Positions 1 through 38,398 of a stretch of 38,398 bases of DNA are shown piece after piece (the stretch's first letter is position 1; each line of letters starts with the position of its first letter). Below the pieces are notes generated by a model. It was not told the origin of the DNA. It did not search any database and saw nothing but the letters and a program-made list of their open reading frames with translations. The DNA is from a virus. Its lineage: Duplodnaviria > Caudoviricetes. The stretch is taken from IMG/VR virus record IMGVR_UViG_3300033406_000385, positions 1 through 38,398 of that record; one strand, 5' to 3'. A program made the translations under genes and the position numbers.

Positions 1-726
1 TCACCCCATCAATAAACATTTTTTCGCAACATCCTCTATGGCGTCAAAATCGGGTTCGTTAATACTAATATAATCTTTATAAACACTAATTTTATAATTA
101 TTACCGTCGTTTTTGGTATTTAACTGTTTTTTCTCAAGCACAGATAAAGAAAAAATACATTCAAAGAAATCAACGTGTTCTGGCCCTAATCTTTGGATTA
201 ATAACCCGTAAAAAGGATTATGCATTGAGCTGAATTTAATATTTATATTATAGTTTTTATGACTACAACTTATGCGACGTTCGAAACTGTTAAACAATAT
301 TCTTAATTCTTTAAGCATATCTTTTGCCCCAGTATAGGTTACATTAATATTATTAAAAAGCAATTCAACCTGAACGCTATCACTCTGGCTAGTGTCCAAA
401 TCATATTGCATCGTTAAAGCAAAATTACTAAATTCATACAACTTTTTGTTTTTCAAATTAAAAACTTTTTTGTATTTATCTCTTCCGTAACGATCACAAA
501 GGATCGATTCAAAAATACCATACGCATCAACACTTTTACCTACAGTAAATGCCGTAGATATTTTCCAATTTGTATCTTTCCATCTAGAAATAATTTTAAG
601 CACGAAAAAATAATATTTAGGGCTTCTCGTATATAAAATAATGTGAAGGCCACCAATGCCAAGCATCAACGGAATCACAGAACATAACACAGTAACAATT
701 TTCGATGCGTCTTTTACCCATTCCAC
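1..726 (-). CDS. AT-rich accessory (moron) protein with N-terminal transmembrane segment, function unknown
   Basis: 241-aa ORF, GTG start with SD AAGGAGGTGG, hydrophobic residues ~10-32, lies after the lysis-cassette terminator. Confidence 0.75.
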   Translation of the reverse strand: MEWVKDASKIVTVLCSVIPLMLGIGGLHIILYTRSPKYYFFVLKIISRWKDTNWKISTAFTVGKSVDAYGIFESILCDRYGRDKYKKVFNLKNKKLYEFSNFALTMQYDLDTSQSDSVQVELLFNNINVTYTGAKDMLKELRILFNSFERRISCSHKNYNINIKFSSMHNPFYGLLIQRLGPEHVDFFECIFSLSVLEKKQLNTKNDGNNYKISVYKDYISINEPDFDAIEDVAKKCLLMG

Positions 727-816: not shown

Positions 817-855
817 AAAAAGCCCGGCTAGCCGTATCAAAACGACTAGCCGGGC
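817..855 (-). terminator. Rho-independent terminator of the late/lysis operon
   Basis: GCCCGGCTAG...CTAGCCGGGC stem (822-855) followed by TTTTTG on the minus strand. Confidence 0.85.
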
Positions 856-861
856 ATTAAT

Positions 862-1311
862 TTATTTCCGCACCGCAAAAAATATTGCTAATACATAACC
901 GATATCTCTCTCAATTTTTAATTTATTAGTTTCCGATACCATTTCTTTGTTGTACGCTTCGAATGATTGATTTGCCTTCTGCAATGAGACTTGCGCTTGA
1001 TTTAAGTCGATCTTGGCTTGCGTCGATACGGTCCTCAACTGTATTAATTGTGCCTGCAACGTCGCCAAGTCCTGCTGATATTGTACCAGCTTGCTCTGCG
1101 CTGTCGCCAAGTCCGTTTTCGATGATTCCAAGTCCGTCAATAGCTGATTGTTGTTGATCTCCAACTGACCGAAGATCTGATCTAACCTGGTCAGCTCCGC
1201 TGGGGTTATCTCCGCCGCCATACACATTCCAGGCAATGAGACCAGCAATAACACACATAGCAATAATGAGCAAAGTTTTCTTGTCAGTAAAAATGCTTTT
1301 AATCGCTTCAA
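862..1311 (-). CDS. Putative spanin-like component: signal peptide, long coiled coil, hydrophobic C-terminal tail
   Basis: TTG start 9 nt after AAAGGGTG; N-terminal basic+hydrophobic segment; Q/L heptads; ends IGYVLAIFFAVRK; stop just before the terminator. Confidence 0.65.
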   Translation of the reverse strand: MKRLKAFLLTRKLCSLLLCVLLLVSLPGMCMAAEITPAELTRLDQIFGQLEINNNQLLTDLESSKTDLATAQSKLVQYQQDLATLQAQLIQLRTVSTQAKIDLNQAQVSLQKANQSFEAYNKEMVSETNKLKIERDIGYVLAIFFAVRK

Positions 1312-1321
1312 TCGTAATCAC
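926..1321 (-). CDS. Putative inner-membrane spanin-like protein (N-terminal TM + coiled coil)
   Basis: GTG overlaps the endolysin stop (GTGA); TM LLIIAMCVIAGLIAW after KK; heptad periodicity. Confidence 0.65.
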   Translation of the reverse strand: MITIEAIKSIFTDKKTLLIIAMCVIAGLIAWNVYGGGDNPSGADQVRSDLRSVGDQQQSAIDGLGIIENGLGDSAEQAGTISAGLGDVAGTINTVEDRIDASQDRLKSSASLIAEGKSIIRSVQQRNGIGN

Positions 1322-1893
1322 ACCCTTTCTAATCCAACAACATAATCATAAGTATTGTTCGCGCGGTTTGCGTACCCGTCGGCATATTCCGAGCAGTCAG
1401 CTGCTGCAGCATATTCATCGTGGAACAGGTCCCGCAACGTTCCCAGGCAGTTGATATCATATCCTCGTTCGGCCCGCCGTTGCAAAAATCGACTTACGAC
1501 ATAGTGCGAAGTCGGGCACCAGATACCGGCATAAATAATGCAGTCCGGATCAATAAGACCCGCGTCAATTAGTGCCGGTAAGTAACTGTTCGCGCAATCC
1601 TGGGCAAGTATCATATCCTGAGCCGCGCGTCCTTGCTCTGAGTCCAGTAGCGCGGATAAAGCATCCAATTCCCCGGCTGCCTCAATGTCGGAATAAGTCC
1701 GACCGGCAAACTGATCACCGCCGTCGATATAAGACAACAGCAAGTCACCTCTGCCGCCGATCCCTTCCCATTGGCTGCAACCCATGCTTGGATAATCACC
1801 AGCGGTTGAGCATGACACAGCGCCATACGGTCCCTCAACGCCGGTTTCTACCAGCCCGCGCGCAATCGCTTTCGTCAATTCATCCGGTGTCAT
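1318..1893 (-). CDS. Putative endolysin, lysozyme-like fold
   Basis: Directly after the holin; E-G-x-Y ... S-x-G-x-x-Q-W pattern and C-terminal GY-x-NR resemble lysozyme-superfamily muramidases. Confidence 0.65.
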   Translation of the reverse strand: MTPDELTKAIARGLVETGVEGPYGAVSCSTAGDYPSMGCSQWEGIGGRGDLLLSYIDGGDQFAGRTYSDIEAAGELDALSALLDSEQGRAAQDMILAQDCANSYLPALIDAGLIDPDCIIYAGIWCPTSHYVVSRFLQRRAERGYDINCLGTLRDLFHDEYAAAADCSEYADGYANRANNTYDYVVGLERV

Positions 1894-2312
1894 TTACTGC
1901 ACCCCTTCTCATCCCGCAACTGGATCAGCTTCTCTTTAATATATTGGGGTATGTACTCGCCATACCCCATCCGATCCACGTTCTCGATAATCGACAGCCC
2001 TTCCATGGCAGCGTAACCGAATACCGCCATGCTGCGAAAAATATGGTTCAAGCTCATCGACGTATCGAGCAAACTGGCGAAGGCAACAACCGCTAAAATC
2101 ACGATCTTTCGTTTGATCCCGGAGAAACTCCGTTGGCTGGACAACGTACCAGTCTTCCACGCCGCTATCATGCCAGTTGCATAGTCAATGCAAATCAGAA
2201 CCAGCAGCGCCTTTATTGGCGCATCCATGCCACCAACCAGCCATGAAAAAACCGCGCCGATGGCACTAAATAAAGCCATGACGCGGAGTTCGGTTTGTGT
2301 GTATTCAATCAT
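1890..2312 (-). CDS. Phage holin (Phage_holin_4_1 type)
   Basis: Motifs DYATGMIAA, G-x-x-RK, EGLSIIEN-x-x-RMG; several TM segments. Confidence 0.9.
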   Translation of the reverse strand: MIEYTQTELRVMALFSAIGAVFSWLVGGMDAPIKALLVLICIDYATGMIAAWKTGTLSSQRSFSGIKRKIVILAVVAFASLLDTSMSLNHIFRSMAVFGYAAMEGLSIIENVDRMGYGEYIPQYIKEKLIQLRDEKGCSK

Positions 2313-2326
2313 GCCGCCACCTCCAG

Positions 2327-4855
2327 TTAATAGATAATACTCCTGTCAATTCCAGCGCCATACCGATATGTGTTGATTGTACGACTTGTTTTGTCGACAA
2401 CAAATACATCCCACGCATCTTCCGTGTTTGTTCCAGTCGTGCGTGTATACGAATAGTTTCCATCTGGTGGACTTTCATAATAATCTGGATAACTACTTAA
2501 TACGGAAATCATAGGAAAGCCTAAATCCTCCGGAATTTCCATGGTATCATAGTGCGTATGCCCAAAAACATACGCTATTAAATTCATTGCACCTTGCGAT
2601 GAAAAATCAACCGAAACCGAAGTTTCACTATCGGTATAACTTGTTCCATTCTTATACGCATATAGGATTTGTTCAATTACTGCTCCGTATTTTGCAACAG
2701 TAACGCCGGTATATCGCGATCGAGTACAGTGATGGCCAAATGCAATTACATGCCAATTCGCTTCATCGCCGCCTTTACTGCTTAAATCCAAAGCAGTATT
2801 AGCAATCCATTGTAGTTGTGTCGGACTCCAGCCCCAACGCAATACAGTATCGTATGGTTGACTTGCGGAATTAGTAAATATAGCCCTAATTTTAAATTTA
2901 TCAAAATCCTGATAATAATAACCGCCGTCTGGCTCAGACGGATTAACGACAATATCATTTTGTCGAAATGGTCTAACCATTCGACTGAACCATTCATTTA
3001 TGGTTAAATCTCCCGTTGTTTGTGATCCATCAGAATCGTGGTTCCCTCGCATGCAAAATACTGGCTGCTTAATTCCATCAAAAACTTTTGCATATTCGGA
3101 CAGGTTAGTCCTAACCGTATCAATCGTCGTTTCTCCTGCGATCGAATCTCCGCCATGTACCACAAAGTCCATTTGCCCATACTTACTCATAGAGGAAATG
3201 GCTTTTAAATGATCTATGCATCCGTGCGTATCAGTTATAAAGCCGAAACACAGCTTGTTATACGTGGTTACTTGGGAAACACTGTTATTTATAGATTTCA
3301 AATCACTGGACGCGTAATCTGCAATAGCATCATCATCGTATGGTCGCTTACCATCAATCAAAAAATCGCCAAGCATAAATACCTTTTTATATGTGCGTGA
3401 GAAAAGTGCTAACAGAATTTCAGATGGACTGATAGAAGTAATCGAACTCGTTGTTCTGACTTGGAAAGTTTTAGTACTTGTATCGAATGTAAGAAGTTCC
3501 TCGCTTGAAGAAGTGATCATATTAATAGTTAAATCGACTGCTCCTGTAACATTTATACTATCTAAATACGTATTTTTCACCGCAATATTTGTTATTGCAG
3601 GGATAAATATTGTATTCGAAGCAAATCTAAAATCAATCTTCGCCCCAAGTCCTCCAATGATGCCGAAGTTACCTGCGACTACCTTCCCGCCATTTACCGT
3701 ATAAGGAGCATTAATCGTTATTTGTTTGGAAGGTAACCACAAAATACCAACCACACTAGAATAGCCTGTAAAATTAGGGATTGTAGCACCGTTGTATATT
3801 TCAAATTTAAGAGTATTGATGTTAAACGCAATTGTAAAACTCTGAAACCCTGGAACTAAAGCAGAGAAATCAACCGTATGAGATGAGAAATCCCACGCCT
3901 TAGATCCAAACCGTATTCCACCTGCGGGAACTGTTAGTATGTAATTTGTTAAATCGAAGTTAATAAATCCGCCAGCTGTGTTTATCCAAGGTGTAATCGC
4001 ATATGGTGGTACATTAGCAACCGAGCTACCTGCCGTTATGCACGGCGCTGGGACATTGATGTATTTATAGCTAATCTCAAACACACCTGCAAGAACATAC
4101 GTTTCTGGAGTTGATGCTATATCGGCAGAATATTTAACTTTAAATTGAAGTGTCGATGTATCAAAATATAACGTACAACTTGACGACACAACATTCGAAA
4201 AATCAACTGTATGTGCCGAAAATGAATATACTGTTTTCCCAATTCGTAATCCGCCTGCCGGTACGCTGATCGTTTTTGCTGTAAAATCGAAAACGAAATA
4301 ACTGCCCGCTGTATTGATTATTGGTTTAGCAGCAAGCGCAGTAATTTTAGCCGAAGTTACCGATCCATCAACAACTGGCGGTACATATGACGATTTTTGC
4401 CAACTTCCTGAGCCACTAGCACCAAGTTTGATGTAAATTCCGTTGTTTGTACTTGTGCTGTCGTTAGTTACTAAGGCCAAAATATTCGCAGCATGGGCAA
4501 GGTCAGCATCCATCAGCGCCTTGGTGGTAAACGCCACATCCGCTGTCGCTTGTGCAGATAAATTAGCTGCATTGGCTGCCGTTTCTGCTGCTGTTTTATA
4601 TGTTAATGCGTTTGTTTCACTTTCCGCCGCTGCTGAAGCTGAACTTTCCGCTGAAGCTGTTGCATTGGCTACCGCTGCGTTTATAGTTTGATCTACATTG
4701 CTTTCGGCTAATTCAGCCGCCGTTTTAGATGTTTCTGCTGCTTCTGCCGAACTTTCCGCATCGATTGCCGATGCTGCTGCAGCATTGGCTGACATTGCCG
4801 CTTGATTAATTGATGCCGTACTTCCTTTGTCCACAATAACAATTGTATCTGCCAT
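2327..4855 (-). CDS. Tail fibre/spike with C-terminal calcineurin-like metallophosphoesterase domain
   Basis: Ala-rich N-terminal coil, internal ~110-aa repeats, then DTH, GD, GNHD, HH and GHTH motifs; last gene of the tail module. Confidence 0.8.
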   Translation of the reverse strand: MADTIVIVDKGSTASINQAAMSANAAAASAIDAESSAEAAETSKTAAELAESNVDQTINAAVANATASAESSASAAAESETNALTYKTAAETAANAANLSAQATADVAFTTKALMDADLAHAANILALVTNDSTSTNNGIYIKLGASGSGSWQKSSYVPPVVDGSVTSAKITALAAKPIINTAGSYFVFDFTAKTISVPAGGLRIGKTVYSFSAHTVDFSNVVSSSCTLYFDTSTLQFKVKYSADIASTPETYVLAGVFEISYKYINVPAPCITAGSSVANVPPYAITPWINTAGGFINFDLTNYILTVPAGGIRFGSKAWDFSSHTVDFSALVPGFQSFTIAFNINTLKFEIYNGATIPNFTGYSSVVGILWLPSKQITINAPYTVNGGKVVAGNFGIIGGLGAKIDFRFASNTIFIPAITNIAVKNTYLDSINVTGAVDLTINMITSSSEELLTFDTSTKTFQVRTTSSITSISPSEILLALFSRTYKKVFMLGDFLIDGKRPYDDDAIADYASSDLKSINNSVSQVTTYNKLCFGFITDTHGCIDHLKAISSMSKYGQMDFVVHGGDSIAGETTIDTVRTNLSEYAKVFDGIKQPVFCMRGNHDSDGSQTTGDLTINEWFSRMVRPFRQNDIVVNPSEPDGGYYYQDFDKFKIRAIFTNSASQPYDTVLRWGWSPTQLQWIANTALDLSSKGGDEANWHVIAFGHHCTRSRYTGVTVAKYGAVIEQILYAYKNGTSYTDSETSVSVDFSSQGAMNLIAYVFGHTHYDTMEIPEDLGFPMISVLSSYPDYYESPPDGNYSYTRTTGTNTEDAWDVFVVDKTSRTINTYRYGAGIDRSIIY

Positions 4856-37597: not shown

Positions 37598-38398
37598 TTA
37601 AACAAGGCCCGCTTTACTGTACAACGCATAAAAATGGTGCGTTGGGCCAACTCCATGCCCCAGCGGGAAGGAATGTTCAATTGCCATCGTCACAAATTCT
37701 TTCGCTGCTCGCACGGCATCGCTGATTGTCATTCCTTTTGCCAGTCCGGCGGCAATCGCTGAAGAAAAAGTACACCCGGTTCCATGTGTATGCGGCGTAT
37801 CAATTCGCTTATTTTCAAAGGCAATAAACTCCCGCCCGTCATATAACAGGTCACACGCATCTCCCGGCAAATGCCCGCCTTTGACGACCACATATTCCGG
37901 GCCCATTGCTTTGATCTTGACGGCTGCCTTTTCCATATCCGCTTTATTGTTTACCGGTTCGCCAATAATCTCAGCGGCTTCCAGCAAATTCGGCGTAACT
38001 ACTTTGGCCAGAGGAAACAATATCTCCTTCAACGCGCCGATTGCTTCCGGTTTTAACAGATGGCTGCCGCTTTTTGAAATCATCACCGGATCAACGACAA
38101 TGTTCGCGATATTCGTTTTCTGTAATTCCCCAGCCACTGTTTTGATGATCGTTTCATTCGACAGCATCCCGATTTTTACCGCATCTACCTGAATATCGGA
38201 ACAAACTGCACGGATTTGATCGCGGATAATTTCTTCATCCAAGTCGCGGATATTAGTAACACCACAAGTATTTTGCGCCGTGATCGCAGTAATGGCACTC
38301 ATTCCATATACACCAAGCGCGGAAAATGTTTTTAAATCCGCTTGTATTCCTGCGCCGCCGCAAGAATCGGATCCGGCTATTGTCAACGCAGTTTTCAT
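37598..38398 (-). CDS. thiD: Hydroxymethylpyrimidine/phosphomethylpyrimidine kinase (host)
   Basis: [36 protein letters not shown] and [11 protein letters not shown] motifs. Confidence 0.97.

Follow-up and report, generated by a model that had tools for sequence, protein, structure and literature searches.

The prophage described here closes its late operon with two same-strand genes, A and B, that share nearly all of their length in different reading frames, and comparative sequence analysis indicates that this pair is real, conserved, and tied to diderm hosts. Its products are probably a lipid-free analogue of the spanins, the phage proteins that disrupt the outer membrane. Negativicutes are described as lacking the Lol pathway, and their phages as descending from phages of Gram-positive Firmicutes (10.1101/606087), while the spanin types described in the literature searched depend on an outer-membrane lipoprotein. 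How the phages of Negativicutes cross the outer membrane is a question to which that literature gave no answer, and the pair occurs in at least about 30% of the Negativicutes genomes sampled (119/401).

The window, by which we mean the whole 38,398-nt stretch of DNA analyzed, is a temperate siphophage-like prophage with integrase, replication, head, and tail genes identified by PHROG matches. The late operon runs on the minus strand from the holin through a 191-aa gene, gene A, and gene B to a strong terminator, and the stop of the 191-aa gene overlaps the start of gene A. Genes A and B start 10 nt apart, B lies in the +1 frame of A, and 386 nt are common to both; the coordinates and features given by the first-pass annotation are correct. 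The elements of the locus, with the flanking host gene, are as follows.

1890..2312, minus strand: holin, 140 aa (Pfam Phage_holin_4_1, E 1.8e-31; PHROG holin, E 8e-23)
1318..1893, minus strand: putative endolysin, 191 aa, assigned by position only, no known family
926..1321, minus strand: gene A, 131 aa, GTG start, encoding an N-terminal membrane helix and a long helix
862..1311, minus strand: gene B, 149 aa, TTG start, in the +1 frame inside A
926..1311, minus strand: dual-coding overlap, 386 nt (ORF coordinates, recoding, and site constraint)
822..855, minus strand: intrinsic-terminator-like hairpin closing the late operon (14 pairs, 10 of them G-C, and a T run)
37598..38398, minus strand: host flank gene thiD (NCBIfam TIGR00097, over cut-off), used only for host placement

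Identity of thiD reaches 98% in genome G034 and 90% in genome G013 of a class sample centered on a Propionispora genome, as opposed to at most 63% in a 201-genome phylum-wide sample, and the nearest named terminases are those of Negativicutes (83%) vs. at most 70% for Clostridia and Bacilli. By these sequence identities the host is therefore a Negativicute. Both G034 and G013 carry LpxC and neither has a LolA match, in agreement with the Negativicute, non-monoderm host that had been supposed. Searches with positive controls recovered neither LolA (0/151) nor lambda-type Rz (PF03245; 0/151) from Negativicutes genomes.

The pair had been placed directly after a holin and an endolysin. This holds for the holin, on its Pfam match, and falls short for the endolysin, which is assigned by the position of the 191-aa gene. 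Pfam, PDB, and NCBIfam gave no significant match to that gene, PHROG gave a marginal one (E 0.093) to a family without assigned function, and a profile comparison with the VgrG3-like endolysins found at other loci was negative. Its relatives fill the slot before the A/B pair in seven other loci. The family is conserved, with 53–78% identity, an invariant Glu20, and an S-x-G-x-S-Q-W stretch, and may be a so far undescribed family of cell-wall hydrolases in phages of Negativicutes. Among the 74 loci with scorable upstream genes, the two closest on that side include a Pfam cell-wall hydrolase in 56, and a cell-wall hydrolase or a putative endolysin of the window's type in 63 (7 of the window's type). 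Six unrelated hydrolase families are represented (amidase_2, amidase_3, GH25, glucosaminidase, M15 peptidase, and VgrG3-like_C), and the pair accompanies several holin types as well. The remaining 11/74 loci have no endolysin among the two nearest genes, which counts against a lysis-linked, spanin-like reading; the pair lies away from the endolysin in loci L121 and L148.

Conservation of both frames was assessed in 83 loci including the window, of which 7 were viral, 2 came from genome scans, 33 were top genome-search matches, and 40 were hand-picked from the lower ranks of the 150 matches listed; 5 duplicates, 3 loci without B, and 26 weak phylum matches were left out. Below 90% identity 77 loci remain, with B proteins 18–63% identical to that of the window. 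The A frame is open over at least 70% of B in all 77, so the openness of both frames in homologues, a check that the first-pass annotation had called for, is confirmed. Synonymous recoding of B in the window left the A frame open in 0 of 1000 trials, and over the whole set 0.04 open loci were expected among 77 as against the 77 observed; the converse recoding of A gave an expectation of 0.42. This simulation is the real test, as the count of stop-creating codons (0/1669) is zero partly by construction. Fourfold sites of B differed at 129/593 positions in the overlap vs. 43/112 in the single-coded tail (p = 3e-4, 17 related pairs), the tail being an imperfect control since it is less conserved at all codon positions. 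The least variable positions are the second codon positions of B, which are the third of A. Differences in the length of the B coil follow the heptad, all 46 non-zero values among the 77 loci being 0 or 3 modulo 7. Taken together, the recoding and conservation patterns argue that both frames are genes under selection. The 72-row alignments used below omit 5 of the 77 loci, which have damaged or unclear 5' ends.

Topology of the two proteins was read from hydrophobicity and alignment patterns, and the predicted segments are listed here.

1217..1282, minus strand: membrane helix of A, residues 14-35 (22-residue uncharged run; helix in model)
938..1198, minus strand: coiled-coil helix of A, residues 42-128, with a conserved basic C-terminal motif (period 3.5; consensus and column counts)
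1216..1311, minus strand: predicted signal peptide of B, residues 1-32 (signal-peptidase-I pattern, no lipobox)
907..1203, minus strand: coiled coil of B, residues 37-135 (length differences in heptad steps)
871..903, minus strand: hydrophobic C-tail of B, residues 137-147, followed by two basic residues, just beyond the stop of A

Both proteins begin, as had been noted, with a hydrophobic run (22 and 21 uncharged residues in A and B, respectively), and the coiled coils claimed for both are borne out by a 3.5-residue hydrophobic periodicity of the family medians, the window's own B peaking at 2.35. The structure model of A consists of helices 14-35 and 42-128 (mean pLDDT 87.8). The single N-terminal membrane helix and the periplasmic coiled coil expected of an i-spanin are thus both indicated by hydrophobicity and by the model, and we infer for A an i-spanin-like topology, N-in and C-out. 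The protein is acidic overall with a basic tip. Its family matches phrog_18860, whose function is unknown, in 24/72 rows (best E 3e-52), with the window's own A not reaching E 0.001 against it.

The model of B contains helices 5-24 and 37-148 (mean pLDDT 92.4), and 50%-identity representatives include 198 of its relatives at E<=1e-10. In the 139 relatives aligned, Ala32 is present in 108 and residue 30 is C, A, V, S, or G in 132. An alanine at this place with a cysteine at -3 is the pattern of a signal-peptidase-I site. Cys30 occurs in 91/139, and the residue preceding it is G or A in 4 of the 96 scored; 35/139 have no cysteine in the 14 residues preceding the mature start. A canonical lipobox is found in 2/139 relatives and a relaxed one in 8/139, and the whole window holds only two lipobox-like matches, both far from the lysis genes. 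These patterns indicate that B is not a lipoprotein. The signal-peptidase-I-like site, the missing canonical lipobox, and the hydrophobic C-tail of 11 residues that had been described for the window's B are all evident in its sequence, and a normal SPII lipoprotein, named beforehand as an outcome that would overturn the idea, is not what the lipobox counts of the family suggest.

The uncharged run of the B tail, 11 residues in the window, has a family median of 13. The last three residues include K or R in 116/139 relatives, and 131 have no terminal aromatic residue. In 68/77 loci, A stops 49–103 nt before the stop of B, i.e., just before the codons of the tail. The N-terminal block of B is acidic and its C-terminal part basic, and the protein is almost free of proline (0.3%). 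Weak matches connect 41/72 B rows with TIGR04211 proteins, which have a signal-coil-anchor architecture. Foldseek gave no match between the B model and viral structures at E<=0.001, a comparison for which a single helix is uninformative; tblastn against 50,697 GenBank phage records gave no match at the sensitivity of a single sequence, and the ESM Atlas returned unnamed clusters only.

Matches to B were found in 157/401 Negativicutes genomes at E<=1e-8 and in 119/401 at E<=1e-13, the stricter count comprising matches above the best false positive. A 401-genome sample of the phylum, in which 86 genomes have LpxC, contains four true members, one of them the sample center, and all four are LpxC-positive. 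True members number 3/85 among LpxC-positive genomes vs. 0/315 among LpxC-negative Bacillota (p = 0.009), the genomes being phylogenetically non-independent and possibly incomplete. A second LPS-making class has B in 9/58 genomes, and the five tested all have LpxC and gave no LolA match (0/5); the 11 matches in this class are nine overlapped pairs, in one of which B has a stop, one separated pair, and one lone B. B was not found in 3/3 monoderm phages with a 65–67% identical terminase, which have holin or holin-slot genes and an amidase. All 38 weaker phylum-wide matches were inspected and rejected, most being secreted coiled-coil proteins of 380–520 aa in which the match ends before the tail of B. 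Locus L132, rejected as well, keeps both frames open over 237 nt, but its sequence is a low-complexity heptad repeat that lacks both signal and tail. Poribacteria (L012) and Phycisphaerales (L013) were not accepted as hosts, these labels belonging to 2–3-kb contigs of assembled genomes; the Negativicutes sample contains a locus almost the same as L013.

Two loci depart from the overlapped arrangement. In L125 (1084-1920; with L145 and L149), A and B are separate adjacent genes, A being recognized by a profile match (probability 96%). This separated pair, which belongs to the second diderm class, ends an eCIS cluster with an AAA ATPase, an eCIS_core protein, an AHH nuclease, and Imm11, and no holin or endolysin was recognized in the part of the contig read. 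Two metagenome scans and one viral scan found no further loci of this type, so that the layout is represented by one locus. In L123 (1414-1923), B stands alone: the surroundings are chromosomal, with an LmeA-like gene and lpxB following, a short in-frame remnant of A is left, and no intact A was found elsewhere in that genome. Three chimaeric proteins, A-like at the start and B-like at the end (P0011, P0075, and P0146), are single sequences from contigs <3 kb and were set aside as probable frameshift errors; a natural single-chain A-B fusion is the less favored explanation of them.

Unimolecular spanins, such as T1 gp11, are lipoproteins. Like B as predicted here, they are exported and have a hydrophobic stretch at the C-terminus, but each consists of a single beta-rich protein (PMC6139136), whereas A and B are two all-helical proteins without a lipobox. 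LysZ of corynephages is, like the pair, encoded last among the lysis genes, belongs to phages with a non-proteobacterial diderm host, and has a membrane helix and a long helical body, but it is a single gene product that targets lipoglycans (PMC13123898). The closest likeness is to the two-component spanins, of which P2 LysB/LysC and Shewanella LambdaSo Rz/Rz1 are of the overlapped type and lambda Rz/Rz1 of the embedded type. These too lie at the end of the lysis genes with the second gene in the +1 frame (PMC6139136; 10.1101/2024.01.23.576932), their first protein has an N-terminal membrane helix and a coiled coil as does A, and both overlapped and separated layouts occur among them, as here (77/77 overlapped, plus the one separated locus). 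The pair also has the setting of spanin genes in the phage of a diderm host, with a holin upstream, a terminator downstream, and a host class with LpxC. The differences lie mainly in B, which lacks a lipobox, is longer than the first protein, and forms a proline-free helix that ends in a hydrophobic tail; its start codon lies no more than about 60 nt from that of A and not in the 3' half of the first gene. Moreover, the hosts of the pair lack LolA. Since B does not have the lipobox that defines the outer-membrane lipoprotein of an o-spanin, the pair was not filed as a two-component spanin. At least one subunit of about 96% of known two-component spanins has a periplasmic cysteine (PMC6139136); the window's pair has none, and one is present in 36/72 A and 27/139 B relatives. 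Matches to Rz PHROGs are weak and at the level of coiled coils, in at most 11/139 B and 8/72 A rows per family, mixed with tape-measure matches, and no spanin family appears among the Pfam and NCBIfam families listed. The family phrog_18860, alike in matching A, has no link to B.

Anchors of other kinds are foreseen, and spanin-less phages listed, in PMC6139136, the accessible portion of which mentions neither Firmicutes nor Veillonella nor Selenomonas. A survey of 485 prophages of Gram-negative Firmicutes contains, in the text available, no word beginning with "span" (10.1101/606087). The Lol pathway is treated in several papers (PMC5491611; PMC10665443; 10.1101/2021.05.31.446380; PMC11784454), and certain Halanaerobiia are reported to have gained Lol genes (PMC11784454). 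No description of the A/B pair was found in the mostly open-access literature searched.

It is quite likely that the pair disrupts the outer membrane in some manner. That A and B do so as a lipid-free, spanin-like device, by the anchoring and zipping mechanism proposed here, is a narrower claim to which we lean slightly. In this mechanism, the N-terminal helix of A would anchor it in the inner membrane and a helix of ~13 nm would extend into the periplasm, and B would be exported and cut by signal peptidase I. The hydrophobic tail of B, at 11–16 residues probably too short for stop-transfer, would insert in the inner leaflet of the outer membrane, replacing the lipid of an o-spanin and dispensing with the Lol pathway. 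The basic C-terminal tip of A would first catch the acidic N-terminal tip of B across the periplasm, and after removal of the wall the two helices would zip antiparallel, bringing the anchor of A beside the tail of B so that the membranes are fused or torn. At 0.15 nm per residue, the reach of A and B is about 13 + 15 nm; the periplasm of Veillonella parvula has been measured at 24.2 nm. A crude charge score is better for the antiparallel than for the parallel arrangement in 61/72 loci, and a complex prediction for A(34-131) and B(33-149) scored 0.28 (mark 0.32), which speaks neither way on A-B binding. Several considerations count against this reading. The K or R ending the tail in 116/139 relatives is equally what the positive-inside rule would lead one to expect if the tail were anchored in the inner membrane, and we know of no route for placing a helical tail in the outer membrane of a diderm Firmicute. 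Predicted lipoprotein signals are present in 17/78 Veillonella outer-membrane proteins (PMC5491611), which counts in the same direction as the frequency of Cys30 in B. Finally, LysZ acts on glycopolymers and not on the outer membrane, and there position and a long helix proved misleading (PMC13123898).

The terminal basic residues are also the starting point of what we rank as the main rival to the lipid-free, spanin-like reading, namely that both proteins stay in the inner membrane, B lying N-out and C-in and held by its tail, and that the rod formed by A and B acts without any fusion, loosening the outer layer in the way of LysZ, e.g., by displacing OmpM tethers or envelope polymers. We consider this unlikely. 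The antiparallel charge fit would be obtained equally with both anchors in one membrane, and the weak TIGR04211 matches of 41/72 B rows point to a similar signal-coil-anchor architecture, but the hydrophobic run of the B tail, with a median of 13 residues, is short by the standard of membrane-spanning stop-transfer segments, and a rod of 13–15 nm is too short to cross a 24-nm periplasm. LysZ provides a precedent for such an activity, and type I inner-membrane proteins have been named as possible spanin parts (Kongari 2018). A lysis accessory acting at the holin/endolysin step (timing, release, or chaperoning), or a membrane pair that is unrelated to lysis and merely shares the late operon, would accommodate the loci in which the pair is away from the endolysin (L121 and L148) and the lone B of L123, and additional non-spanin lysis factors such as Lcc6 are known (10.1101/2024.01.23.576932). 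Six unrelated hydrolase families and several holin types imply, however, that the pair is not matched to one partner, and its occurrence only in LpxC-positive genomes of the sample, with none found in monoderm sister phages, makes a role of this kind distinctly unlikely.

The i-spanin topology of A and the overlap geometry of two-component spanins (PMC6139136), together with Cys30 in 91/139 relatives, could instead suggest that Cys30 belongs to a non-canonical lipobox and that B is simply an o-spanin lipoprotein of the ordinary kind, carried to the outer membrane by some route other than a known one. This is improbable given how rarely G or A precedes the cysteine (4/96) and how many relatives (35/139) have no cysteine upstream of the mature start; Ala32 in 108/139 puts the cysteine at -3 of a signal-peptidase-I site, LolA is found in 0/151 genomes, and a lipoprotein would have no need of the conserved C-tail. 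That only one gene is real, the second frame being a by-product of the composition of the first protein, draws on the coincidence of the hydrophobic segments of the two frames and is scarcely credible in view of the recoding tests and site constraints. A and B persist as separate genes in L125, where the alternative frames carry 6 and 11 stops, so open frames are not forced by the proteins themselves.

A broader proposal, for which the chances seem to us a little under even, is that the lipid-free pair represents a third class of phage membrane-fusion machine. It would be Lol-independent and encoded almost entirely in two frames of a single sequence, and its short C-terminal helix would get to the outer membrane without help and there serve as anchor or fusion peptide. 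The pair would be the general solution to outer-membrane lysis among phages of diderm Firmicutes, and a bacterial contractile injection system would also have taken it over to release its particles. If the lipid-free, spanin-like reading is right, the pair would be a new minimal fusogen, would reveal a Lol- and BAM-independent way to the outer membrane, and would offer both a means of probing the envelope of diderm Firmicutes mechanically and a marker for assigning uncultured phages to diderm hosts.

Other genes near the lysis region were recorded in the course of the analysis. In the window, an AT-rich gene of 241 aa with no family match lies beyond the late terminator (1-726, minus strand) and is likely cargo, and an 842-aa tail-region protein (2327-4855, minus strand) carries a metallophosphoesterase domain at its C-terminus (Pfam E 4.4e-9). 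L012 (43-348), L042, and L121 (1943-2215) have, immediately before the pair or the endolysin, a gene of 90–100 aa resembling the C-terminal end of NrdD. Directly after the endolysin, L003 (3637-3882), L013 (696-1001), and L002 (3594-3938) encode a small acidic coiled-coil protein that ends in a hydrophobic helix, a possible third lysis factor, and similar-looking genes are present in L032 and L039. L002, a 10.7-kb fragment without the A/B pair, also encodes after the same endolysin family a 197-aa protein (3951-4544) that begins with a membrane helix and has a beta-strand-like C-terminus with Trp as its last residue; this protein could be a single-chain alternative for outer-membrane disruption.
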